A DNA stretch of 10,951 nt from a virus. Location of the stretch: the IMG/VR virus record IMGVR_UViG_3300045988_174840; one strand, 5' to 3'. The notes under the pieces were generated by a model that did not search any database, had not been told where the DNA came from, and saw only the letters and a list, made by a program, of their open reading frames with translations. The position numbers were made by a program, and so were the translations under genes. Shown piece after piece: positions 2,510 through 10,951 of the stretch. How positions within the stretch are numbered: position 1 is the first letter of the stretch; each line of letters opens with the position of its first letter.

Positions 2510-2538
2510 TTGAAAAAGTATAAAAAATATGTTATAAT
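2510..2538 (+). promoter_or_regulatory. Sigma-A promoter TTGAAA-17-TGtTATAAT for the small HTH gene
   Basis: TTGAAA is at 2510-2515 and TG-extended TATAAT at 2533-2538. The ORF-track start at 2510 is the TTG of this -35 hexamer. Confidence 0.6.
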
Positions 2539-2572
2539 ATTTAATATAAACAAGAGAAAAGAGGACACGGGA

Positions 2573-2749
2573 TTGACAAGAGAAGAATTAAGTGCGGAAT
2601 TGGGTATAAGTGAGAATAGAATATTACGTCACTGGCGGGAAGTGTGTAATAGCTATGAGCGGATTGGGATTAAGTTGATTAAAAGAGGGAAGGGAAAAAA
2701 CGCGGAGTATGGTATTTTAAAAAAAGACGAGACTATAGCAAGATTTTAG
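2573..2749 (+). CDS. Small HTH DNA-binding protein (58 aa) with a TTG start. The ORF-track N-terminus at 2510..2572 is promoter sequence, not coding.
   Basis: The SD AAAGAGGA (2557-2565) sits 7 nt before the in-frame TTG at 2573. Product MTREELSAELGISENRILRHW..., a helix-turn-helix pattern. Confidence 0.5.
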   Translation: MTREELSAELGISENRILRHWREVCNSYERIGIKLIKRGKGKNAEYGILKKDETIARF

Positions 2750-3253
2750 GTGTAGGTGAGGGTATTTATGGTAACGGTTGAAAATACAGATGGGACTATA
2801 GATGTGTATGGTAATCTTGGTTGCGTAATCATATAAATATAGAGCGAAACAAAAGAGAAAGAATCGGGGAATTATGTAAATATTTTATTTCTGGAAAAAT
2901 ATGTGGCGGCAAGGAGAAAATTTTAATAAAAGATATTGATAATAACTATACTAGATGTCTTTCATATGAATCGGAATAAGAAGAGGAGTTTGTTGCGGAT
3001 GAAGCTGGATATAAAGATCTTTGAAGTAAGAATTGCCGCATATAAAAAATAGAGGATTTTCTTTGGAGAGAATTTTAAGATAAGAGGATATTATGACGAG
3101 AAAAGTTTAACTGTTTTGTTGAAAGACGAAATTAAATGTCGAAATGTACACTTTTTCAACAAAATTGTTAAAAAAATATGTTTATATTAAAAGGACGAAA
3201 TTTGTTAAGTTTCTTCCAAAAATTTTAAAGAAAAGTGAAAGGAGTTTAACAAA

Positions 3254-3868
3254 ATGGAAAATTTAACGAATATAATGTATTTATATCTATTGATTCATCA
3301 AGGACATTTTGAAAAGGTGAATTATAGTAAGATATCTAAAGAGTTAGGTGTAACTAGACAAACACTATCAAAACAATATAATTCATTACTAGATAATGAA
3401 ATGATAATAAAAGATGATTTTGGTTTTATTAAAGTTAAAGAAGTTTTAGAATTTGATGAAGAAGATTTAGAAATTATTAAAAATAAAATAGTAGAATATC
3501 CTTCTTCTTATATTGGATATTTACTATTAAAAAGAAGATTATTATACGAAACAGATGCTTCTATTTGTAGTATACTAAAGATAAGTGAAAAATTTATTAA
3601 GAATTATCAACAAAAAATTATTTTTGATAAGAATAATGGAGAAGAAGATGTAGTAAACTATATATATGCTATTGTTTTAAATAAAGAAATAAAGTACGTA
3701 GGTTCAACAGAAGATTTAATAAACAGGATACAAATTCATTGCAATAAAAGAAAGTTTTTAGCAGAGAATAATTTTATTATTTTAGAAAAATGTTCGAGGA
3801 AGAATAGATTTGATAGAGAATCTTTTTATAGAAAGTTATTTAATCCAGAATGGAATACAATTATTTAG
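3254..3868 (+). CDS. Fusion protein: N-terminal winged-HTH + C-terminal GIY-YIG nuclease domain (204 aa)
   Basis: SD AAAGGAG is 9 nt upstream. The N-terminal NYSKISKELGVTRQTLSKQYNSL is wHTH-like. The C-terminal NYIYAIV...KYVGSTEDLINRIQIH...FDRESFY...NPEWN matches GIY-x(10)-YIG with the conserved Arg, His, Glu and Asn. Confidence 0.75.
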   Translation: MENLTNIMYLYLLIHQGHFEKVNYSKISKELGVTRQTLSKQYNSLLDNEMIIKDDFGFIKVKEVLEFDEEDLEIIKNKIVEYPSSYIGYLLLKRRLLYETDASICSILKISEKFIKNYQQKIIFDKNNGEEDVVNYIYAIVLNKEIKYVGSTEDLINRIQIHCNKRKFLAENNFIILEKCSRKNRFDRESFYRKLFNPEWNTII

Positions 3869-3879
3869 AGGAAGGAAAA

Positions 3880-4239
3880 ATGGAAACTAGAGAAAATCAA
3901 AAGGTGGTTACAACTATGAAAGCTTTACATGACAGTAATAATTTATATTCTCCAGTTAATATTGAAGCAGCAAGTAAAGCAATGTCTTTGTTAAAACCTA
4001 ATACTTTTAAAATTTGGTTTTATTTAGGAAAAAACCAAGATCAATATACTTTTGCATTATCTAAAATAGATGTTATGAAATTTTGTAATATATCGCGGTC
4101 TACTTATTTATCTTCTATAAAGGAATTGATTGATACACATTATCTAGTTCCAGATAAAGATGGCTCTAATCATTATAATTTTTATGAATTTCCTCAAGAA
4201 GTAGAAGATGATTTGATTATAACAATAAATAAAGGATAA
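3880..4239 (+). CDS. Winged-HTH DNA-binding protein (119 aa), a possible origin-binding or regulatory protein
   Basis: GAGGAAGGAAAA precedes the ATG at 3880; the ORF-track start at 3850 lies inside the upstream gene. FKIWFYLGKNQDQYTFALSKIDVMKFCNISRSTYLSSIKELIDTHYL resembles replisome-organiser/Rep-type wHTH. The iteron region begins 10 bp after its stop. Confidence 0.65.
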   Translation: METRENQKVVTTMKALHDSNNLYSPVNIEAASKAMSLLKPNTFKIWFYLGKNQDQYTFALSKIDVMKFCNISRSTYLSSIKELIDTHYLVPDKDGSNHYNFYEFPQEVEDDLIITINKG

Positions 4240-4249
4240 AATAAAGATA

Positions 4250-4289
4250 GGTATAATTTTAATACCCTTAAGGGTATTAAAATTATACC
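4250..4289. repeat. Perfect 18-bp inverted repeat GGTATAATTTTAATACCC-TTAA-GGGTATTAAAATTATACC (an iteron core in inverted orientation)
   Basis: The arms 4250-4267 and 4272-4289 are exact reverse complements. Confidence 0.9.
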
Positions 4290-4291
4290 TC

Positions 4292-4318
4292 AGTGGTATT
4301 AAAATTATACCAGAAATA
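4292..4318 (+). repeat. Iteron-like 27-bp direct repeat AGTGGTATTAAAATTATACCAGAAATA, copy 1. The core GGTATTAAAATTATACC also occurs at 4273-4289.
   Basis: Identical to 4466-4492. Both copies are followed by similar AT-rich TATATTATA tracts. Confidence 0.85.
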
Positions 4319-4338
4319 ATACATATATTATATTATAA

Positions 4339-4406
4339 AAGAAGTAATTTCATTACTTCGTATTCAAGCACTTCGTGCTTTCATACTCGTAATGAAATTA
4401 CTTCTT
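4339..4406. repeat. Large composite palindrome: 18-bp outer arms AAGAAGTAATTTCATTAC / GTAATGAAATTACTTCTT enclosing an inner hairpin AGCAC-TTC-GTGCT
   Basis: The outer arms 4339-4356 and 4389-4406 are exact reverse complements. The inner hairpin is at 4367-4379. Confidence 0.85.
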
Positions 4407-4465
4407 AGCCGCCGATAATTTTGCAAAATGTCGAAAAAGTGTAACACAATATAATATAATATAAT

Positions 4466-4492
4466 AGTGGTATTAAAATTATACCAGAAATA
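4466..4492 (+). repeat. Iteron-like 27-bp direct repeat, copy 2
   Basis: Exact copy of 4292-4318, 174 bp away. Confidence 0.85.
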
Positions 4493-4545
4493 TTACATAT
4501 TATACTATATTATATTATATAACTATTATATAATAATAATAATAT

Positions 4546-4582
4546 AGGTAATGTATCATACCTTCGGTATGATACATTACCT
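4546..4582. repeat. Perfect 17-bp-stem hairpin AGGTAATGTATCATACC-TTC-GGTATGATACATTACCT (a UUCG-type loop)
   Basis: Exact inverted repeat. It lies at the boundary between the AT-rich origin-like region and the purine tract. Confidence 0.85.
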
Positions 4583-4599
4583 TAGTGTAAATTAAAATG

Positions 4600-5400
4600 A
4601 AGAGTTTTATGCGGGGTGGGGTATTTAGTAGTTGAATCCGCTTTGTTTTAGAGGGACTCTTGTTTAATTTTAAAATGTCAAGGAACGTTTTAAAAAATGA
4701 TTTGAAAATTTTAAGGTTTAAGTAAATTAGGAAAGTTTTTCGGAAGGCATGAGAAAAAGTAAGAAAAGAAGTATGGTATATTTAGAGAATGGCAAAGAAT
4801 ATTACTGAATAATAACAAAGAGTTAGAGAGTTTTGTTAAAAACGAGTTATGGTTTTTTGGTTAGAAAAGTGTGGAAGAGGGTATTTAAATTATAAGAGAA
4901 GTATGGGAGTGCGGAATTGAATTTAATTAAAGTGCTTCCGCATTTAAAAAGCAAGGTTAAATAAAAATTGCGGGTTACAGAATTGCTTAAATAAAATTAT
5001 TAAAATTTTGCGTGAGGAGTTTGATTTTGGAGAGAATTAAGGGTAGCTTTAATAAAATATAAAGATTGGATTAAAGGTGCGTAAGGTTAAGATAATAAAA
5101 TATTTTAGAATTAGAGGGAATTGATGATAGGTTAATAAAAATAATAAGACTGAGTAAAGAGAATTTAATGTTTGGATTAAGAGAAAGTATAAGTTAGATT
5201 AAGAGAGAAGAAGGTTGAAGTATATAAAATAATAAGCGGAAGTGAGGATTTTGAGATTGGGTTAAGAGAGGAGTGAGATTAGAGTGAGAGAGCGTAGAAT
5301 TGGAGTGTAGAGAGGATGAGAGTGAGGCGTGAGTGGAGAAAGGATAGAGCGAGGCTGAAAAAATGCGAGAAAAAGGTGAAAAAAATTGTGAGAGTGAAGT
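4600..5400 (+). repeat. ~800-bp non-coding tract that is almost cytosine-free on the + strand (G/A/T only). It carries degenerate GATTAAGAGAG-type repeats.
   Basis: By eye there are about 40 C in about 800 nt, against abundant G. The motif (G/A)GATTAAGAGAG(G/A)AG recurs near 5068, 5174, 5196 and 5258. There is no SD-led ORF of meaningful length. Confidence 0.8.
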
Positions 5401-5430
5401 GCTCAGCCTCACTCTCCCTATCCTACCTCA
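5301..5430. repeat. Long imperfect inverted repeat GAGAGGATGAGAGTGAGGCGTGAG / GCTCAGCCTCACTCTCCCTATCCTACCTC at the 3' end of gene 5438..5833. Candidate terminator or structured element.
   Basis: Arms at about 5301-5330 and 5401-5430 pair over about 20 bp with one bulge. The strand composition flips exactly here. Confidence 0.5.
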
Positions 5431-5437
5431 GAGCTCT

Positions 5438-5833
5438 TTATACGAGCCCAGAGAGGATTTTTCTAATAATTTCATCATCTGATAAAGCTTTTTCATTCTC
5501 CCGTTTTACATCTCTTTTTAAATCTGTATCTACTCTTTTAATTCCAAATGATCTTCCCCTTGGAATATCACCCATTTTACCAAAAGCTTCAATAGTCTTT
5601 TCCATCTTAGTAAACTCTGTCATAAGATTTTTTCTATCCTCAGCAGACTCTTTTTTATCAATAGCTCCAAGAGCAATTCCATACGCTACAAACGCGTCAA
5701 CCAATTTGTTTCTCGCATCTACAATCGCCTTTGTGCGGGTTTCCTTAGTCTGCTCCGCCTCGATTTCAGCTCTTACCGCCTTAAGAATTTCATCTGTTGT
5801 TTTGCCTTCTGCGATCATTCTTTTAATATCCAT
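5438..5833 (-). CDS. Hypothetical alpha-helical protein (131 aa)
   Basis: SD AAAGGAGA is 7 nt before the ATG. Its own promoter lies at 5881-5909. Codon usage is visibly GC-richer (GCG/GCC/CGC) than neighbouring genes. No motif recognised. Confidence 0.65.
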   Translation of the reverse strand: MDIKRMIAEGKTTDEILKAVRAEIEAEQTKETRTKAIVDARNKLVDAFVAYGIALGAIDKKESAEDRKNLMTEFTKMEKTIEAFGKMGDIPRGRSFGIKRVDTDLKRDVKRENEKALSDDEIIRKILSGLV

Positions 5834-5880
5834 AGTATGTTCTCCTTTTGAAATGTTTATTTGTTTTTCTTTATGTATAT

Positions 5881-5909
5881 ATTATATCAAAAAATTATAG
5901 AAAATTCAA
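5881..5909 (-). promoter_or_regulatory. Promoter TTGAAT-17-TGaTATAAT, proximal promoter of gene 5438..5833
   Basis: The reverse complement reads TTGAAT tttctataatttttga TATAAT. Confidence 0.55.
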
Positions 5910-6023
5910 AGGGGAAGACATCTTTCTAGCTATTGTTGGGCTTAATTAGTTTCCAAAAATTTTAAATGAGATAAGGCTCGACGTAAAAATGGAAGGCGGA
6001 AAATAAAAATGGCTTTTTTTACT

Positions 6024-6052
6024 ATTATATCATATATTTTGTTAAAAATCAA
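6024..6052 (-). promoter_or_regulatory. Promoter TTGATT-17-TGaTATAAT with no ORF directly downstream; reads into the long leader towards gene 5438..5833
   Basis: The reverse complement reads TTGATT tttaacaaaatatatga TATAAT. Confidence 0.5.
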
Positions 6053-6187
6053 GCGGAGAGAGGTGAGGTATGTTAAAATTGCGGGATTCTAGAGTAGTGA
6101 TTCAAAATTCCAAACATCTAGGAAAAAAGCCCATATAGGCGATCTTTGTGGTAGGTCGGATCCGAGTCCTTTGAACTCGGACCGCTG

Positions 6188-6216
6188 ATTATATCACAGC
6201 CGCCGCGTTTTGTCAA
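6188..6216 (-). promoter_or_regulatory. Consensus promoter TTGACA-17-TGaTATAAT. Its transcript would begin at the 6154-6185 hairpin.
   Basis: The reverse complement reads TTGACA aaacgcggcggctgtga TATAAT. Confidence 0.6.
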
Positions 6217-6435
6217 TAGGCAAATTATATAAATTTTTCATTATTTTTTTAGTAATATTGCACAAAAAGTCATTTTTACCAAAAATTTCATTAAAAATAG
6301 GATTTTTTTTGGTAAAAATGACTAAAATAAATAAAAATGTACAAAAAAATAGCCAAAAACCGCGTAATTTTTGGCTATTTTATATAGAATATAGAATTTT
6401 ATTGAATTTTTATAAGAAATTTTAGTTATTTTGTA

Positions 6436-6472
6436 TAGAATAGTCAGAAATGTAAATTTTCTGACTATTCTA
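6436..6472. terminator. 15-bp perfect hairpin TAGAATAGTCAGAAA-TGTAAAT-TTTCTGACTATTCTA, 27 nt after the stop of gene 6499..6900. Possible terminator. Two further inverted repeats lie upstream at 6268-6323 and 6350-6377.
   Basis: Exact inverted repeat. The T-run is modest (AATTTTTAG on the + side), so the terminator function is uncertain. Confidence 0.4.
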
Positions 6473-6498
6473 CGTAATTTTTAGTTACCTTGAACTGC

Positions 6499-6900
6499 TT
6501 ACTCCTCTACAGCTTCCTCTTCCTCTTCCTCTTTTGCAAGAGAGAAATAAGGAACTCTTTTTTCAACTGTTCTAACTACCTCTCCAGATTCGATAAGCTG
6601 TTTAAGAAGAGCCGATAATTTCTGAGAAGAAAGTTTACTCATTTCAGAGTTTTCCTTAATCATGGTTGAAACTGTAACAGGTTTATCAAATAACTCCAAA
6701 GCTACAAGAATAAGTTTTTTGACTTCCTCATTTTCTTTCTGGTTTTTGGTTTTTTTACCGCTGGAAGATTTTTTATTCAACAGCTCGATTTCATGTCTGA
6801 GAAAGTTAAGTGCTTCTTCTTTTGGTTCAAAGCTACTTTCTTCCAGAAAAGCACTGATAGTTTCAAACCAATCTTTTTTTGTCATTTTGTCTTTCATCAT
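6499..6900 (-). CDS. Winged-helix-like protein with a poly-Glu C-terminal tail (~133 aa), paralog A. Start is ATG 6900 (or 6897); the ATG at 6906 is too close to the SD.
   Basis: The C-terminal 85 aa (KPVTVSTMIKENSEMSKLSSQKLSALLKQLIESGEVVRTVEKRVPYFSLAKEEEEEE) are about 85% identical to 8803..9210. Helix-turn-helix-wing pattern. Promoter at 6934-6962. Confidence 0.75.
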   Translation of the reverse strand: MMKDKMTKKDWFETISAFLEESSFEPKEEALNFLRHEIELLNKKSSSGKKTKNQKENEEVKKLILVALELFDKPVTVSTMIKENSEMSKLSSQKLSALLKQLIESGEVVRTVEKRVPYFSLAKEEEEEEAVEE

Positions 6901-6933
6901 ATTCATTACCTCTTTCTTTCTTTTGATATATTT

Positions 6934-6962
6934 ATTATAGCATACTTTTTTGTTTTTGTCAA
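6934..6962 (-). promoter_or_regulatory. Consensus promoter TTGACA-17-TGcTATAAT followed by the conserved leader ATATCAAAAGAAAGAGG
   Basis: The reverse complement reads TTGACA aaaacaaaaaagtatgc TATAAT. Confidence 0.6.
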
Positions 6963-6978
6963 TTACTTTTTTTATTTT

Positions 6979-7182
6979 TTAATTTTTTCCAAGATACTCT
7001 TCAAGATGCTCGTTTAAGAAATTTATAGTTTCATCCAACCCGCAAATCTCACAAAAGTTTTTAAAAGCTTTTTCAAGTTCTTTTTTTCTAGTTGCTTTTA
7101 TTAATTTAATACAACTCTCATAATCTTCTTTTGTAATAACAAAAGGAACGCATCCATCTTTTTTCAATGTAAATTTTTCCAT
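6979..7182 (-). CDS. Hypothetical small protein (67 aa, several Cys)
   Basis: SD AGAGAGG is 9 nt before the ATG. Promoter at 7215-7243. Confidence 0.55.
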   Translation of the reverse strand: MEKFTLKKDGCVPFVITKEDYESCIKLIKATRKKELEKAFKNFCEICGLDETINFLNEHLEEYLGKN

Positions 7183-7214
7183 TTTTATTTGCCTCTCTTT
7201 CTTTTGATATATTT

Positions 7215-7243
7215 ATTGTATCACATCTTTTGACTGCTGTCAA
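7215..7243 (-). promoter_or_regulatory. Consensus promoter TTGACA-17-TGaTACAAT
   Basis: The reverse complement reads TTGACA gcagtcaaaagatgtga TACAAT. Confidence 0.6.
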
Positions 7244-7249
7244 GCACTT

Positions 7250-7669
7250 TTATAAAATATTTTCAGCTTTTAAGTAATCTCTATAGGAAATATAGCCATT
7301 TTCCGCGAGCCACCTATCACAAGCGTTGGATTCTCTCCAATAATACTCCTCCCAGACTGGAAAAGTTATTATTATTTTATCACTTTCTTTTTTAAGAATA
7401 GTAATAATTGTATTAATACAATGTCCTTTACCCTCAAGCCATTCCTTGAAAGTAACCTTTTCTGCCGCTTCAAACGAAATTGTAAATGAGAAATTAAGCT
7501 CTTTTCCTTTTTCTGTGAGAAAATCAGTTAAATAATTTACAAACTCTTCTTCCTCATAGTTACTTTCGTCCAGCAGTGGAGTTTCTAAAAAATGCTCATT
7601 TGCTGGATTATAAAATCCATTTCTTTTGATGTCTTCAATTAACATTTTAACAACTTTTTCAATTTTCAT
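7250..7669 (-). CDS. Hypothetical acidic protein (139 aa)
   Basis: SD AAGGAATGGGA. Promoter at 7705-7733. Glu/Asp-rich; no motif recognised. Confidence 0.6.
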   Translation of the reverse strand: MKIEKVVKMLIEDIKRNGFYNPANEHFLETPLLDESNYEEEEFVNYLTDFLTEKGKELNFSFTISFEAAEKVTFKEWLEGKGHCINTIITILKKESDKIIITFPVWEEYYWRESNACDRWLAENGYISYRDYLKAENIL

Positions 7670-7704
7670 TTTATCCCATTCCTTCTTTTGATTTTTGTAA
7701 TATC

Positions 7705-7733
7705 ATTATATCAAATTTAATTTGGTTTGTCAA
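7705..7733 (-). promoter_or_regulatory. Consensus promoter TTGACA-17-TGaTATAAT
   Basis: The reverse complement reads TTGACA aaccaaattaaatttga TATAAT. Confidence 0.6.
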
Positions 7734-7840
7734 GTGTTTTTTATTTTTTTATAAGGTTTTCGCATAACACTTGACCAAAAGCATTTCCTTATTATTTTCT
7801 ATTGACATAATCTCAAATTGATTTGATTTTGTCAAGTCTT

Positions 7841-8164
7841 TTAAAAATAACTTCCTAAGCTTGTAATAAAAGTGCTTTCTACAATAAGTTTATTATTTAT
7901 ATAATAAGTAAAAGCAATAGAAGTTACATAAACAGCCAGACCTAAGAGTGAACTTTCAAAAGCACATTCCTGAGAGATATTAAATTTATAGTTTTTATGT
8001 TTAGGATTTTCTTTTAAGAAATTGAAAACAGTCTCGCCTAAACAATCGCCTTTATTATTCATTTCCATGTAATTATGTCTTTCAGAGTTCCAAAAACCGT
8101 GACTGTCTAAAAAATCATAAAGGTCTGCCATTGTCTCCTCAAACATTGTTAAATCGTTTGCCAT
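7841..8164 (-). CDS. Hypothetical small acidic protein (107 aa) with a GFW motif and a hydrophobic C-terminus
   Basis: SD AGAGG is 8 nt before the ATG. Promoter at 8200-8228. It shares the L-D-L-x3-GFW-S-E/D motif with 9361..9636. Confidence 0.55.
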   Translation of the reverse strand: MANDLTMFEETMADLYDFLDSHGFWNSERHNYMEMNNKGDCLGETVFNFLKENPKHKNYKFNISQECAFESSLLGLAVYVTSIAFTYYINNKLIVESTFITSLGSYF

Positions 8165-8199
8165 ATTAAATACCTCTTTCTTATTTATTTTATGTATAC

Positions 8200-8228
8200 A
8201 TTATATCAAAAGAAAAAATAAAAGTCAA
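8200..8228 (-). promoter_or_regulatory. Promoter TTGACT-17-TGaTATAAT
   Basis: The reverse complement reads TTGACT tttattttttcttttga TATAAT. Confidence 0.6.
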
Positions 8229-8419
8229 TGGCATTTTGCACAAAGTATAATAAAATATTTTGTCTATTTTGACTATTGACAAGTTTAGCATTGTGCATAA
8301 CAGAGAAAATTGGCGAATTTTGATATAAATTTTTGTTCATTTTACCTATTGACAAAGAATTTTGTGCAAAACAGAGAATTTTGGGATAAAAAATTTTTTA
8401 TTTTTGTGCATTTTTTCTC

Positions 8420-8448
8420 TTGACAAAATTGTTAGCGTGTGATATAAT
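8420..8448 (+). promoter_or_regulatory. Consensus promoter TTGACA-17-TGaTATAAT on the + strand. It forms the left arm of the 8420-8513 palindrome and has no ORF downstream.
   Basis: TTGACA at 8420-8425, 17-nt spacer, TATAAT at 8443-8448. Confidence 0.55.
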
Positions 8449-8457
8449 GGATATTTC

Positions 8458-8480
8458 GGTCGCCTTGATCCAAGGCGACC
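8458..8480. repeat. GC-rich perfect hairpin GGTCGCCTT-GATCC-AAGGCGACC at the centre of the promoter palindrome
   Basis: The 9-bp arms are exact reverse complements. It sits at the predicted +1 of both flanking promoters. Confidence 0.85.
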
Positions 8481-8484
8481 CGCT

Positions 8485-8513
8485 ATTATATCACACTTTC
8501 GGGTGCTTGTCAA
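8485..8513 (-). promoter_or_regulatory. Consensus promoter TTGACA-17-TGaTATAAT on the - strand. It forms the right arm of the palindrome and points toward the small-gene array.
   Basis: The reverse complement reads TTGACA agcacccgaaagtgtga TATAAT. Confidence 0.55.
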
Positions 8514-8802
8514 TAGGCAAAATAAACAAAATTAAAAAATTTTTGAGCATTATCTTTGTTACATTTTCACAAAATTATAGACTGGAACTCTTTGTGCAAC
8601 AATACCAAAATTATAAAAATTTTTTAGCTATTTTTTGTAATTTATGTACATTGACTTTTTTGTTCTCTGGTATTTTTGAATAAAAAACATCCCTCCAGCA
8701 GCGGATTTTTTGTGCAAAAAGTAGAAAAAAAAATGCACAAAAAGGAGGACGGATTTTGTGCAATCCGCCCTCTTGACAAGGTTTATAAGTTACTTTTTAG
8801 TT

Positions 8803-9210
8803 TTACTCTTCTTCCTCAACTTCTTCTTCTTTTGCAAGAGAAAAGTAAGGAACTCTTTTTTCAACTGTCCTGACCACTTTGCCTGCCTCAATCATTTTTT
8901 TCAACAGTGCAGATAACTTCTGAGAAGAAAGCTTACTCATTTCGGCGTTCTCTTTAATCATTGTAGTTACCGTGACAGGTTTACCAAACAGCTCTAAGGC
9001 AATTCCAATAAGTTCCATAAGCTCCTCATTTTCTTTAATGTGAGCTGTTTTCTTTTTGCCTGGTGCTGAAGATTTCTTATTTAACAGTTCAATCTCGTGA
9101 TTGATGAAGTCAAGTGTTTCTATTTTTTTGTCAAAGTTTTCGGTTTTTTCTACGATGCCAACCAGCAGTTTGAAAAAGTCTTTTTTTGTCATTTTTGTTG
9201 TGTTTGTCAT
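8803..9210 (-). CDS. Winged-helix-like protein with an acidic C-terminal tail (135 aa), paralog B
   Basis: SD AAGAGGA is 8 nt before the ATG. Promoter at 9323-9351. The C-terminus KPVTVTTMIKENAEMSKLSSQKLSALLKKMIEAGKVVRTVEKRVPYFSLAKEEEVEEEE matches paralog A. Confidence 0.75.
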   Translation of the reverse strand: MTNTTKMTKKDFFKLLVGIVEKTENFDKKIETLDFINHEIELLNKKSSAPGKKKTAHIKENEELMELIGIALELFGKPVTVTTMIKENAEMSKLSSQKLSALLKKMIEAGKVVRTVEKRVPYFSLAKEEEVEEEE

Positions 9211-9255
9211 AATTAAATTCCTCTTTTCTTTCTTTAAAAATTTTTTTGGTGGCTT

Positions 9256-9292
9256 GCGGTCGGTGGTCGATTTTGCCGACCAACCAAACCGC
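9256..9292. repeat. Imperfect GC-rich stem-loop GCGGTCGGTGGTCG-ATTTTGC-CGACCAACCAAACCGC in the 5' leader of gene 8803..9210
   Basis: Seen directly in the sequence. It shares the CAGCGG-GGTC...GACC theme with the hairpins at 6154-6185 and 8458-8480. Confidence 0.6.
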
Positions 9293-9322
9293 TGAAATTA
9301 TTTACTACTTTGTTACAATACT

Positions 9323-9351
9323 ATTGTACTACTTCTTTTTACTTTTGTCAA
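9323..9351 (-). promoter_or_regulatory. Consensus promoter TTGACA-17-TACAAT followed by the palindromic TTGTAACAA leader element
   Basis: The reverse complement reads TTGACA aaagtaaaaagaagtag TACAAT agtaTTGTAACAAag. Confidence 0.6.
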
Positions 9352-9360
9352 GCACTTTTT

Positions 9361-9636
9361 TTATTTTTTTTGTTCCCACAAAACTACTTGAGTCATAGGC
9401 TTGTTATTTTCAATCCAAGCAAGGGAAAAAGCTACGATGTTAAAAGGATGCTCAAGAAATTCGATATAATCAATATCAAATTCAAAATCCCATTCTTTTT
9501 GATAAGATTCTAACAAGCTATTGATAGCGTTATAGCTATAAGTATAACTATAACTATCACTGTCCCAAAAACCTGCTTTTATTAAGTCATCTTCTAAACG
9601 ATTTAAAATTTTTTCTAACATTATTATCACCTTCAT
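9361..9636 (-). CDS. Hypothetical small strongly acidic protein (91 aa) with a GFW motif
   Basis: SD AAGGAAA is 9 nt before the ATG. Probably co-transcribed with 9699..10073, since no separate consensus promoter was found. Confidence 0.55.
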   Translation of the reverse strand: MKVIIMLEKILNRLEDDLIKAGFWDSDSYSYTYSYNAINSLLESYQKEWDFEFDIDYIEFLEHPFNIVAFSLAWIENNKPMTQVVLWEQKK

Positions 9637-9649
9637 TCAATGTTATTTC

Positions 9650-9678
9650 CTTGCTACCGCTTAATAAGCGGTAGCAAG
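9650..9678. repeat. Perfect 11-bp hairpin CTTGCTACCGC-TTAATAA-GCGGTAGCAAG between genes 9699..10073 and 9361..9636. It overlaps the SD of the downstream gene.
   Basis: Exact inverted repeat. The 3' arm on the minus RNA ends in CAAGGAAAT, which is the SD of gene 9361..9636. Confidence 0.8.
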
Positions 9679-9698
9679 TTTATTAAATTATTTAGTTT

Positions 9699-10073
9699 CT
9701 ATTTCTTTTTTGGCGGTCGATGCTTAATCAAAGAAATTGAATACTCGGACTCACCGATTTTGAAAGTAATTTCTTTTTGTGGATTTGCGATTGCTACACT
9801 TTCAAAGTCCATTTCTTCATTTTCTTTTAAGTAGCTTGCTAAAATCTCAATAATTTTAACTTTTTCTGCATCAAGTTTGATTTCACGCTTTTTCGTGCTT
9901 TTTTTCTCTGGTGTACTCTGGACATAATTCTTAATGCCTTTAGCCTTAATCTCCATTTCTGCCATTTCAAGAGCTTCCTCTTTTGTTACGGGTTCTCCAT
10001 CCGCTTCAAATTCTTTCATAAGCTTAATAGCAAGCTTTTCGATTGCATCTGCGGTCACTGTTGTTTTAGCCAT
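9699..10073 (-). CDS. Hypothetical protein (124 aa), Lys/Glu-rich
   Basis: ATG at 10073 with an AAAGGATG-type SD about 11 nt upstream. Promoter at 10122-10150. Confidence 0.55.
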   Translation of the reverse strand: MAKTTVTADAIEKLAIKLMKEFEADGEPVTKEEALEMAEMEIKAKGIKNYVQSTPEKKSTKKREIKLDAEKVKIIEILASYLKENEEMDFESVAIANPQKEITFKIGESEYSISLIKHRPPKKK

Positions 10074-10096
10074 GTTACATCACATCCTTTTTAAAA

Positions 10097-10160
10097 TTTA
10101 CTATTAACTTGTTACAATGGTATTATATCGCACCTTAGCTTAAAAGTCAAGCATTTTCGT
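10097..10160. repeat. Perfect 64-bp direct repeat, copy A (promoter + leader + last 5 codons of the exonuclease gene)
   Basis: Identical to 10888-10951 at an offset of 791 bp. Confidence 0.9.
10122..10150 (-). promoter_or_regulatory. Consensus promoter TTGACT-17-TATAAT plus a TTGTAACAA leader, lying within the 64-bp direct-repeat copy A. Its -35 overlaps the exonuclease stop codon.
   Basis: The reverse complement reads TTGACT tttaagctaaggtgcga TATAAT accaTTGTAACAAg. Confidence 0.6.
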
Positions 10161-10857
10161 GTAATTCTTTTCTTTTTTTCTGCGGCAGTCTCCAACATGA
10201 CGGCTTAATACTTCTATCCATTTTTTTATGCTGGTCAAAACATTTTTTCATAATTTCAATTTCAATTTTTACATCTTCTAAACCTGTATGAGATTCTACA
10301 AAATCAATATTCTTTTTAATATATTTATAGCATACCTCAGCGTTAGTTAAAAGATTGCCTTTTTCAGACTCAAATCCGTTTTTCTCAGCAAATTTGATAT
10401 AGGTGTTTGTACTTAAAATCATCTGGCAAGCCATATTCCAAATACAAAAATATTCTGTGCCATAAGGGAAAAACCAGCGAATAAAACTTTTGCTATGGTA
10501 TCTAATAGCATTGTTTAATGCTTTTCTATCAAAATTCATATTGTAAGCACCAACTTTTTTCACATTATATTCTTTCATGTCTGCAAACATCTGTTTTCTA
10601 ATATTGAAGATGCTTTTCATGGTTCTTTTTCCGCTTTTTAAATCATCCCAATATTTTGGGATTTTTTTAGCGTAGTAGGCACTATTCATAGCTTCTTTCA
10701 AGTCAATAAATGTCTCAGCGACTACAAAGCTTCTTTCGGTGACAATGTTACCGTGTCTATCTGCAATAGCATAACCAATATCATAAGGGATTGGCTCATT
10801 TACACTATTCGCAGTTTCTGTATCCAATACCATGAAAAACTCTTTTCTTCTACTCAT
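10147..10857 (-). CDS. DEDDh (DnaQ-like) 3'-5' exonuclease, ~236 aa. Start is ATG 10857; the ORF-track start at 10872 is a TTG with no SD.
   Basis: Exo I MVLDTETAN. Exo II VGAYNMNFDRKAL. Exo III HTGLEDV (H-x4-D). GAGGAAA lies 6 nt before ATG 10857. Promoter copy B is at 10913-10941. Confidence 0.8.
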   Translation of the reverse strand: MSRRKEFFMVLDTETANSVNEPIPYDIGYAIADRHGNIVTERSFVVAETFIDLKEAMNSAYYAKKIPKYWDDLKSGKRTMKSIFNIRKQMFADMKEYNVKKVGAYNMNFDRKALNNAIRYHSKSFIRWFFPYGTEYFCIWNMACQMILSTNTYIKFAEKNGFESEKGNLLTNAEVCYKYIKKNIDFVESHTGLEDVKIEIEIMKKCFDQHKKMDRSIKPSCWRLPQKKRKELHENA

Positions 10858-10887
10858 TTTTGATTTCCTCAACTTTCATTTATTTTT

Positions 10888-10951
10888 TTTACTATTAACT
10901 TGTTACAATGGTATTATATCGCACCTTAGCTTAAAAGTCAAGCATTTTCGT
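10888..10951. repeat. Perfect 64-bp direct repeat, copy B (runs to the window edge); contains promoter 10913-10941 for the exonuclease gene
   Basis: Identical to 10097-10160. It includes ...TCAAGCATTTTCGT, the stop codon plus C-terminal codons of an exonuclease-like ORF, which implies a further homologous gene end just beyond the window. Confidence 0.85.

Follow-up and report, generated by a model that had tools for sequence, protein, structure and literature searches.

The IMG/VR virus record IMGVR_UViG_3300045988_174840 comprises 10,951 nucleotides (nt) of DNA with a G+C content of about 29%; this whole stretch is referred to as the window. Its minus strand carries, within positions 5438-10872, an array of nine open reading frames (ORFs; Table 1), nearly all of which lie behind a consensus promoter of their own. 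We propose that the array forms the distal third of an immediate-early module of the host-takeover type in a large (about 133-141 kb) uncultured phage, and we put the probability of this reading at roughly 70%. The phage probably infects a gut Firmicute of low GC content. We observed directly the promoters, the structure of the genes, the coding constraint, the conservation of the architecture and the turnover of cassettes. The array follows a known design, and the promoter-hairpin units interspersed in it are the sole part that may be new in kind.

Promoters and transcription units of the array

Candidate promoters were scored by their matches, out of 12, to TTGACA-N16-18-TATAAT, and 300 first-order Markov simulations of the same strand served as background. 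On the minus strand between 5401 and 10951, nine sites reached at least 11/12, each with a spacer of 17 base pairs (bp), compared to a simulated mean of 0.17 and a maximum of 2. A second promoter scan recovered identical sites. The promoter array is real and far above chance, and the dense near-consensus promoters claimed in an earlier interpretation of the window (here called the sequence-only reading) were borne out. Six of the nine sites, and likewise the 10/12 site at 5881-5909, are positioned 30-45 nt upstream of start codons with a purine-rich ribosome-binding site in between; P9351, the seventh gene-linked site, lies 112 nt upstream of o8803. Altogether, a promoter and a strong ribosome-binding site stand in register before all ORFs except o9361, and AAAGAGAGG closes the leaders at a distance of 6-9 nt from the ATG. 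The sequence-only reading had placed a TG-extended promoter before almost every gene, which is correct for the promoter itself; the TG extension is present on only five of the eight gene promoters. Three 12/12 promoters, at 8513 and 6216 on the minus strand and at 8420 on the plus strand, are not followed by an ORF.

The genes had also been described as monocistronic, which we could not uphold. o9361 has no promoter and is located after o9699 across a 13-bp hairpin, and terminator-like hairpins with a U-run occur at only three places (8745-8772, 6337-6390 and 5390-5416). Elsewhere, the -35 boxes start 6-20 nt past the preceding stop codon, and the stop codon of the exonuclease gene (o10147) even lies within a -35 box. 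The ORF without a promoter, the scarcity of terminators and the promoters abutting stop codons together indicate stacked co-directional promoters that feed three terminated units. The very stable hairpin between o9699 and o9361 (9650-9678) may serve RNA processing or stability, or it may terminate transcription of the opposite strand.

Eight of the ORFs encode proteins of 67-139 amino acids (aa), and the remaining one has 241 aa, so that the earlier count of nine or more genes of 67-139 aa was right for eight. Compared with relatives of 80-98% identity, third codon positions take most of the mismatches, as in the exonuclease gene (80 versus 11 and 9 at the other two positions) and in o9699 (90 versus 22 and 7). 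This bias was found in all ORFs and is weaker for o5438, o7841 and o6979. The substitution pattern indicates that the ORFs are under purifying selection; they are also kept as proteins.

From the sequence we infer early timing, transcription by the host RNA polymerase and an action of the products on the host. Upon DNA entry, host sigma-A RNA polymerase would read these promoters without any phage factor. Each promoter appears to be built for maximal strength, with an A-rich tract, TTGACA, the 17-bp spacer, an often TG-extended TATAAT and an AaATATA(T/C)A start region, and would be followed by a short leader bearing the strong AAAGAGAGG ribosome-binding site. As the promoters point in the same direction and terminators are rare, nested transcripts would result, in which downstream genes sum the output of the upstream promoters; the three terminators would split the portion of the array that lies in the window into three units. 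Among the products would be a DEDDh-type exonuclease and two winged-helix proteins with poly-Glu tails, which would form the conserved core of such arrays, together with clade-restricted small proteins, three of them from one acidic paralog family, that presumably bind host or defence targets.

Relatives of the array and known host-takeover modules

A nucleotide search with the whole window against plasmid and phage collections gave no match. Homologs of the encoded proteins were all found on phage-like contigs of 130-141 kb, which agrees with the phage early region offered as one possibility by the sequence-only reading; 132 contigs encode the exact o8803 protein, and the largest of them has 139,486 bp. 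The window genes make up, in five long contigs of complete-genome size, the last third of a run of about 13 kb with about 27 co-directional small genes. The array is followed there by a variable island on the opposite strand and then by genes for SprT and an AAA ATPase, the latter 44% identical to the ATPase of Enterococcus Kochikohdavirus. Counted per array, consensus promoters number 20, 26 and 29 in the relatives L017, L007 and L008 (L-numbers denote loci or contigs of relatives) and 17 in Enterococcus phage H1. Their common consensus consists of an A-rich upstream tract, TTGACA, an A-rich spacer, a frequent TG extension, TATAAT and AaATATATaAa, and the same design recurs in relatives whose exonuclease is merely 52-70% identical.

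The profile of the winged-helix family (see below) was also run against 185,579 species genomes. It gave 14 loci, all in metagenome-assembled bins of inconsistent taxonomy and one on a contig of 142 kb, with up to 30 consensus promoters per 12 kb on the gene strand. Homologs in chromosomal metabolic operons had been named as the observation that would speak against the sequence-only reading; none of the 14 loci was of this kind, and none lay in an isolate chromosome. The labels of the metagenome-assembled genomes (MAGs) for L025-L038 include Erysipelotrichaceae, Prevotellaceae, Treponema, Alphaproteobacteria and others. Since the array contigs are most likely mis-binned viral sequences, these labels are no reliable guide to the host.

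Gene content differs even between close relatives, as seen in a comparison of genomes 91-95% identical. L005 lacks o7250 and the next promoter, and P7733 is joined there to the o6979 leader inside the common sequence 'atcaaaag' (window 7206-7651 versus L005 13139-13222). In L004, the sequences corresponding to 6987-8176 and 9370-9695 are missing, and an o9361-like gene is located elsewhere. As the cassette junctions lie inside common leader sequence, regulatory sequences appear to double as recombination points, and cassettes would be gained, lost and moved via recombination in common promoter and leader sequences.

The genes of the host-takeover module of phage SPO1 are small and made early, and their promoters and ribosome-binding sites are of the kind that marks highly expressed genes (PMC6873191). 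Shut-off of host functions is attributed to several of these genes (PMC6873191, PMC7414437), and 26 genes are organised in 12 operons within two convergent blocks (PMC6873191). The array described here resembles that module in being a cluster of mostly small genes. The likeness includes the size of about 12-13 kb, the mostly small genes of unknown ancestry, the many consensus sigma-A promoters and the strong ribosome-binding sites, and it reaches into promoter detail. The SPO1 promoters carry 'aaaaagtgTTGACA...TGTGcTATAATaaatttATCA' or, followed by a leader hairpin, 'aaaaagtgTTGACA...TGTGcTATAATaaatttATCAgg', with 'aaaagtg' before the -35 box, a TG-extended -10 box and an 'aaAt(a/t)tATCA' start region, and hairpins stand early in some transcripts. 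The two modules differ in that consensus sites are fewer in SPO1 and that the window genes are nearly all self-promoted and point in a single direction; moreover, for SPO1 it has been demonstrated that the module sits in a terminal repeat, is expressed early and shuts off the host.

Similar early genes occur in other phages. In Listeria phage CKA15, early genes are under sigma-A-like TTGAC...TATAMT promoters, and gene gain and loss is concentrated near the genome ends (PMC12282133). Among the early genes in its long terminal repeat, Staphylococcus Kayvirus phage K has an array of 21 small co-directional genes and, just upstream of the next promoter, an orphan consensus promoter with a GC hairpin (KF766114, position 6189) that resembles the P6216 unit of the window; in phage K this unit was detected by RNA-seq as the small RNA snc003 (PMC9241854). 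Unlike the window, phage K has only seven array-strand consensus promoters in 12 kb, and reverse-oriented hairpin units were not found in it with covariance model R1. A further parallel is found in coliphage T5, a large siphovirus-type phage. Its pre-early (first-step-transfer) region contains small host-shutoff and anti-defence genes behind exceptionally strong sigma-70 promoters, and a repeat-rich non-coding zone follows the pre-early genes. The window array also precedes a non-coding zone (4249-5400) with palindromes and skewed composition, a likeness of layout only. Two-step DNA entry or a terminal repeat, as in T5, is not evident for the window.

Several points weigh against the host-takeover module proposed here. 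A tblastn search of SPO1 1-14000 and phage K 1-12000 with the full set of window proteins returned nothing below E = 0.68; because the SPO1 gp37-60 and phage K terminal-repeat proteins share no similarity with the window proteins, the likeness is one of architecture and not of homology. Early expression and shut-off are suggested by a single feature, the type of promoter. The three 12/12 promoters without an ORF imply that protein expression is not the whole story. Finally, the exonuclease and the ATPase point to different phage groups. The closest relatives of the exonuclease are in the unclassified, siphovirus-like EF1/H1 group; the EF1 group together with the gut phage phAss-1 has been proposed as a separate family (PMC10607447). 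The ATPase is closest to Herelleviridae. We do not assign the phage to Herelleviridae, as EF1 is unclassified, H1 has a 2673-aa tail protein and no annotated sheath, and the ATPase family occurs across many phage families.

Encoded proteins and their possible roles

o10147 displays the motifs DTE, NMNFD (NxxFD) and HTGLED (Hx4D) in its translation and matches phrog_20187 (E = 4.8e-60) and phrog_192, 'DNA polymerase exonuclease subunit' (E = 2.3e-6). Searches against Pfam and PDB sequences gave no match and no significant match, respectively. With its three Exo motifs and the family match, o10147 is a predicted DEDDh-type 3'-5' exonuclease. It is 45% identical to a gene product of the Enterococcus phages H1, EF1 and VRE9, annotated in H1 as 'exodeoxyribonuclease'.

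o6499 and o8803 are paralogs (70% identity, E = 5e-57) of a family with 421 members, all within this phage clade. Several distant arrays carry two to four copies of this family and have nothing else in common with the window except the exonuclease and, in two of them, o9699. In the family alignment, the N-terminus is helical and is joined by a basic linker to a conserved C-terminal domain, after which comes a poly-Glu tail of about 6-45 residues. An AlphaFold model (predicted local distance difference test, pLDDT, 75.6) placed helices at 81-87 and 96-109 and strands at 112-117 and 120-125, which together form a C-terminal winged helix. A Foldseek search with this model returned Z-alpha, MarR and ArsR domains at a probability of 1.0, with target-normalised template modelling (TM) scores of 0.8-0.87 and root-mean-square deviations of 1.5-2 A; the corresponding E values are weak (0.02-0.1), as is a Pfam hit to HTH_24. 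The presence of a predicted winged-helix domain of the DNA-binding type in both paralogs, already called by the sequence-only reading, is thereby supported at the fold level. We also considered o9699 as a distant winged-helix relative (blastp E = 0.014-0.03) and rejected it, as profile comparison gave a probability of 0.5%.

The small genes had been described as Glu/Asp-rich and acidic. Computed isoelectric points (pI) are 4.40 for o9361, 4.71 for o7841 and 4.75 for o7250, in line with that description, whereas those of the other six proteins are 5.2, 5.8, 6.6, 6.8, 8.8 and 9.4. Asp and Glu make up 12-21% of the residues and are nearly offset by Lys and Arg, with net charges from -10 to +14. 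Only four of the nine proteins are clearly acidic and half of the set is neutral or basic; the array proteins are charged rather than acidic. o7841 and o9361 could be joined via an intermediate sequence (E = 6e-8), and their profile aligned with that of the o7250 family (hhalign probability 75%, E = 2.5e-5); all three share the N-terminal motif 'L.D.L...GFW/Y'. These profile links suggest that three of the four most acidic small proteins belong to one divergent paralog family.

Searches of the small ORFs against Pfam, PHROGs and NCBIfam produced only sub-threshold noise, with no match at E <= 0.1 that passed a curated cut-off; examples are o5438 to the MotA-like phrog_1345 (E = 0.0037) and the winged-helix paralogs to DUF4777 and HTH_24. 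Four small ORFs compared with PDB sequences gave nothing significant. o7841 has only four representative homologs among 1.8 billion proteins and o7250 only three homolog clusters, and the homologs of o5438 are all at least 63% identical. As the homologs of these three proteins are only clade relatives, no function can be transferred to them.

Could the array be mainly an anti-defence island, whose small proteins inhibit restriction, CRISPR or other immunity, some of them as DNA mimics? An early-type array with strong promoters would suit such a role, as would the rapid gene turnover and the paralog families, which are also seen in arms-race genes. Three proteins have a pI of 4.4-4.75, the winged-helix paralogs bear poly-Glu tails of variable length, and the SPO1 module is reported to include the acidic DNA-mimic protein Gp44 (PMC8208478). 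However, net charges amount to only -5 to -10, with half of the proteins neutral or basic. The DNA-mimic or ArdA/Ocr-like character suggested by the sequence-only reading found no backing, as acidity is only moderate and no anti-restriction or anti-CRISPR match was obtained in Pfam, PHROGs, NCBIfam or PDB sequences; with no dedicated anti-defence library searched, this is evidence absent rather than negative. A model of o7250 was of low confidence (pLDDT 62) and matched nothing significantly (best Foldseek E = 0.12), a structural test that neither shows nor excludes an anti-defence role. We regard an array devoted mainly to anti-defence as unlikely, and the anti-defence half of the earlier interpretation is unproven.

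Another explanation treats the genes as accessory, moron-like genes of a temperate phage, which the prophage would express to the advantage of its host. Like morons, they have their own promoters, but neither an integrase nor a repressor was seen in 20-kb contexts, the homologs keep to MAG contigs of inconsistent taxonomy and never appear in isolate chromosomes, and the cultured relatives are lytic Enterococcus phages. Such an origin is highly improbable.

Leaders, operator candidates and promoter-hairpin units

Two leader families had been proposed. In the first, the exact ATATCAAAAGAAAGAG leader is present at three genes (535, 6906 and 7182), whereas the genes starting at 5833 and 8164, assigned to the same family, have a different common leader, (a/g)tatacataaa. 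The second is defined by TTGTAACAA, which was indeed found three times, each 4 nt after a -10 box, compared to 0.20 expected. Two of the three copies are contained in a perfect 64-nt duplication of promoter and family B leader (10097-10160 = 10888-10951), and TTGTAACAA was not found in the promoters of relatives with an exonuclease 52-70% identical at the protein level. By this comparison, TTGTAACAA appears to be lineage-specific and confined to the close lineage, with two copies that stem from a recent duplication.

The sequence-only reading had further suggested TTGTAACAA and TGATAT-N-ATATCA as operators, and neither was supported. The TGATAT half of the latter is the TG-extended -10 box, and only a minority of array promoters have ATATCA 14 nt or less from the -10 box (3/20, 4/26, 7/29 and 0/17 in four lineages). 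Because ATATCA belongs to the promoter-proximal start-region consensus, which is also seen in SPO1 early promoters, dyad symmetry is not the conserved feature. A better candidate for an operator may be TGCACAAA, with eight copies compared to 0.47 expected. All copies lie within two non-coding stretches; copies precede hairpin-type promoters by about 15-25 nt and occur in the loop of the o8803 terminator, and enrichment was also found in L017, L008, L010 and L016.

The leader of o8803 is 112 nt long (9211-9322) and contains a GC hairpin at about 9256-9292 followed by A7T5, compared to 32 nt for its paralog o6499; this unusual length may indicate gene-specific post-transcriptional control. Upstream of the reverse promoter, the tandem copies at 8243-8419 may be pseudo-promoters or protein-binding sites.

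Two 12/12 promoters converge over 8420-8513 (element 8389-8544) across the palindromic GC hairpin 8458-8480, with predicted start sites about 20-25 nt apart, and the full L017 array has three such convergent pairs (6886-6981, 7040-7143 and 10698-10791). The reverse promoter 8420-8448 with its upstream sequence 8377-8419 is the part of the module best kept in distant relatives. There, the constant part runs from a promoter opposing the array through RGAAATTTCGG to a GC stem of 10-14 bp and is located just 3' of a forward terminator. Reverse promoter and covarying hairpin recur 3-10 times per array in relatives. An alignment of 17 copies yielded a consensus stem of 10 pairs with compensatory changes at seven of them, and the covariance model built from it detected 10 more copies in L007, L008 and L016 (E <= 0.013) and 11 in independent loci (E <= 0.01). 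All of the copies outside the training set (21/21) are antisense to the array; the -10 box is missing from some copies. A search of Rfam 15 gave nothing relevant to the hairpin units in the window at E <= 1 and one tRNA only in 71 kb of relatives.

Three other identities for these elements were considered and rejected. The convergent pair is not one long palindrome or miniature inverted-repeat transposable element, as only the hexamers and the upstream A/T tracts are complementary and the spacers are not, and distant relatives have the reverse half only. Most copies lack a U-run on either strand, which speaks against terminators, and stems of 10-14 bp whose sequence varies between copies of one genome do not fit CRISPR-repeat mimics. 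In L007, the hairpin loops retain AGAG-N-AGCG(T/C) although the stems differ within the genome. TAGCGT, the loop consensus of ssoA-type single-strand origins, is found within two of these loops.

It is possible, and we suggest it only tentatively, that the promoter-linked GC hairpin units represent a previously undescribed class of phage regulatory element that is interspersed across the arrays of the whole clade and often faces a second consensus promoter. Candidate roles are hairpin-capped antisense RNAs that time early-gene shut-off, insulators between units and transcription-primed replication origins, and the clustered TGCACAAA copies and the conserved winged-helix paralogs could be partners of the units. 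A hairpin unit lies 55-300 nt downstream of winged-helix genes in L007 and the window lineage, and not clearly so in L008 and L016; we take this linkage as a lead. The P6216 unit, which has the same orientation as the array and is kept in L007 at 13493, is a candidate small RNA of about 60 nt by its sequence.

Promoter density could also serve mainly non-coding purposes, such as RNA polymerase capture, small RNAs or transcription-primed origins, with the ORFs being secondary. The three 12/12 promoters without an ORF, the convergent pairs flanking hairpins and the conserved, strand-specific hairpin units would fit. Yet all ORFs but o9361 are served by a promoter and a strong ribosome-binding site in register, and the ORFs are under purifying selection with conservation at the protein level, so that this explanation is highly improbable. 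The sequence-only reading had also likened the array to plasmid leading regions. A leading region of a plasmid or conjugative element with early anti-defence genes shares only formal traits with it: one strand bears small genes dense in promoters, such genes are conceived as the first to be expressed when DNA enters, and some of the proteins are acidic. This reading is effectively refuted by the lack of any plasmid match, by the phage gene content of the 130-141-kb contigs, by a cultured relative with terminase, tail proteins and tRNA arrays, and by ordinary double-stranded sigma-A promoters instead of folded single-strand ones. Nor was a match to ArdA, Ocr, KlcA or similar proteins obtained, and acidity is far weaker than in those mimics.

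Table 1 Features of the array, in the order of transcription (window coordinates unless stated otherwise)
Feature	Position	Strand	Description
Exonuclease promoter	10913-10941	-	TTGACT-17-TATAAT, 11/12; family B leader, TTGTAACAA at 10900-10908
o10147	10147-10872	-	241 aa; predicted DEDDh-type 3'-5' exonuclease; TGA stop inside next -35 box
Promoter P10150	-35 at 10150, -10 ending at 10122	-	within 64-nt duplicate 10097-10160
o9699	9699-10073	-	124 aa, pI 6.6; no family match; homologs in L007, L015
Intercistronic hairpin o9699/o9361	9650-9678	-	13 bp, z -6.6; no U-run on array strand
o9361	9361-9636	-	91 aa, pI 4.4; no promoter of its own; 'GFW/Y-motif' acidic paralog family
Promoter P9351	9323-9351	-	TTGACA-17-TACAAT, 11/12; third TTGTAACAA copy at 9310-9318
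o8803	8803-9210	-	135 aa; three predicted N-terminal helices, C-terminal winged helix, poly-Glu tail
Intrinsic terminator after o8803	8745-8772	-	z -4.0; TGCACAAA in loop
TGCACAAA copies	6259, 8237, 8361, 8403, 8591, 8709, 8734, 8755		operator candidate
Orphan promoter P8513	8485-8513	-	12/12, array direction; transcript would begin with GC hairpin
GC hairpin	8458-8480	both	GGTCGCCTTG-ATC-CAAGGCGACC; z -4.5 and -4.1
Reverse promoter	8420-8448	+	12/12, TG-extended; points against array
Tandem module copies	8243-8419	+	about 73 bp apart; TTGACAA ... TTGTGCA; no usable -10 box
o7841 promoter	8200-8228	-	11/12, TG-extended
o7841	7841-8164	-	107 aa, pI 4.7; acidic paralog family
Weaker site	7807-7835	-	10/12
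o7250 promoter P7733	7705-7733	-	12/12, TG-extended
o7250	7250-7669	-	139 aa, pI 4.75, net charge -10; acidic paralog family
o6979 promoter	7215-7243	-	11/12, TG-extended; begins 6 nt past o7250 stop codon
o6979	6979-7182	-	67 aa, pI 5.8
o6499 promoter	6934-6962	-	12/12, TG-extended
o6499	6499-6906	-	135 aa; second predicted winged-helix paralog, acidic tail
Intrinsic terminator after o6499	6337-6390	-	16-bp stem then U7; z -4.6
P6216 unit	6123-6216	-	orphan 12/12 promoter P6216 (6188-6216) with GC-rich spacer, hairpin 6157-6184 (z -2.8), U-run at about 6123; no ORF behind
o5438 promoter	5881-5909	-	TTGAAT-17-TATAAT, 10/12, TG-extended
o5438	5438-5833	-	131 aa, pI 8.8; final array gene; homologs confined to clade
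Terminator-like hairpin at array end	5390-5416	-	z -0.5, no better than shuffled; G-poor stretch next
L007 hairpin loops (L007 coordinates)	3427-3482, 5786-5833, 6949-7004, 8109-8167, 9845-9891, 11537-11592, 12464-12521

After the last array gene, the array-sense strand of 4700-5400 contains 1-4% G and 21-40% C over about 700 nt with no ORF, a zone that is kept in relatives (L007 14401-15000, L008 16700-17500) and that resembles a Rho-utilisation site in composition alone. Positions 4249-4560 are AT-rich and include a 17-bp hairpin, GGTATTAAAATTATACC units that are repeated, and a pair of perfect 21-nt palindromes (AGGTATAATTTTAATACCCTT). In IMG/VR, three contigs from close relatives terminate at window positions 4402, 4509 and 5356, the sole hint that the array might lie within a terminal repeat. 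The 4249-4560 stretch may mark the edge of a repeat, an origin or a break in the assembly. The opposite-strand island (2510-4239, plus strand) encodes a helix-turn-helix (HTH) protein, a protein with HTH and GIY-YIG nuclease domains and an HTH_36-like protein; as its content varies among near-identical genomes (L017 versus L018 and L019), it may be a mobile homing-endonuclease cassette.

Taken as a host-takeover module, the array would extend a known design of large Gram-positive phages to a widespread clade of uncultured gut phages of about 135 kb. Its clade-restricted small proteins, including the three-member acidic family and the winged-helix protein, provide a catalogue for testing as inhibitors of host processes or defence, and its promoters and leaders are a source of very strong, compact natural sigma-A cassettes. 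The array also gives a clear example of common regulatory sequences acting as recombination points in cassette exchange, and the strand-specific promoter-hairpin units could teach how such modules are switched or insulated.

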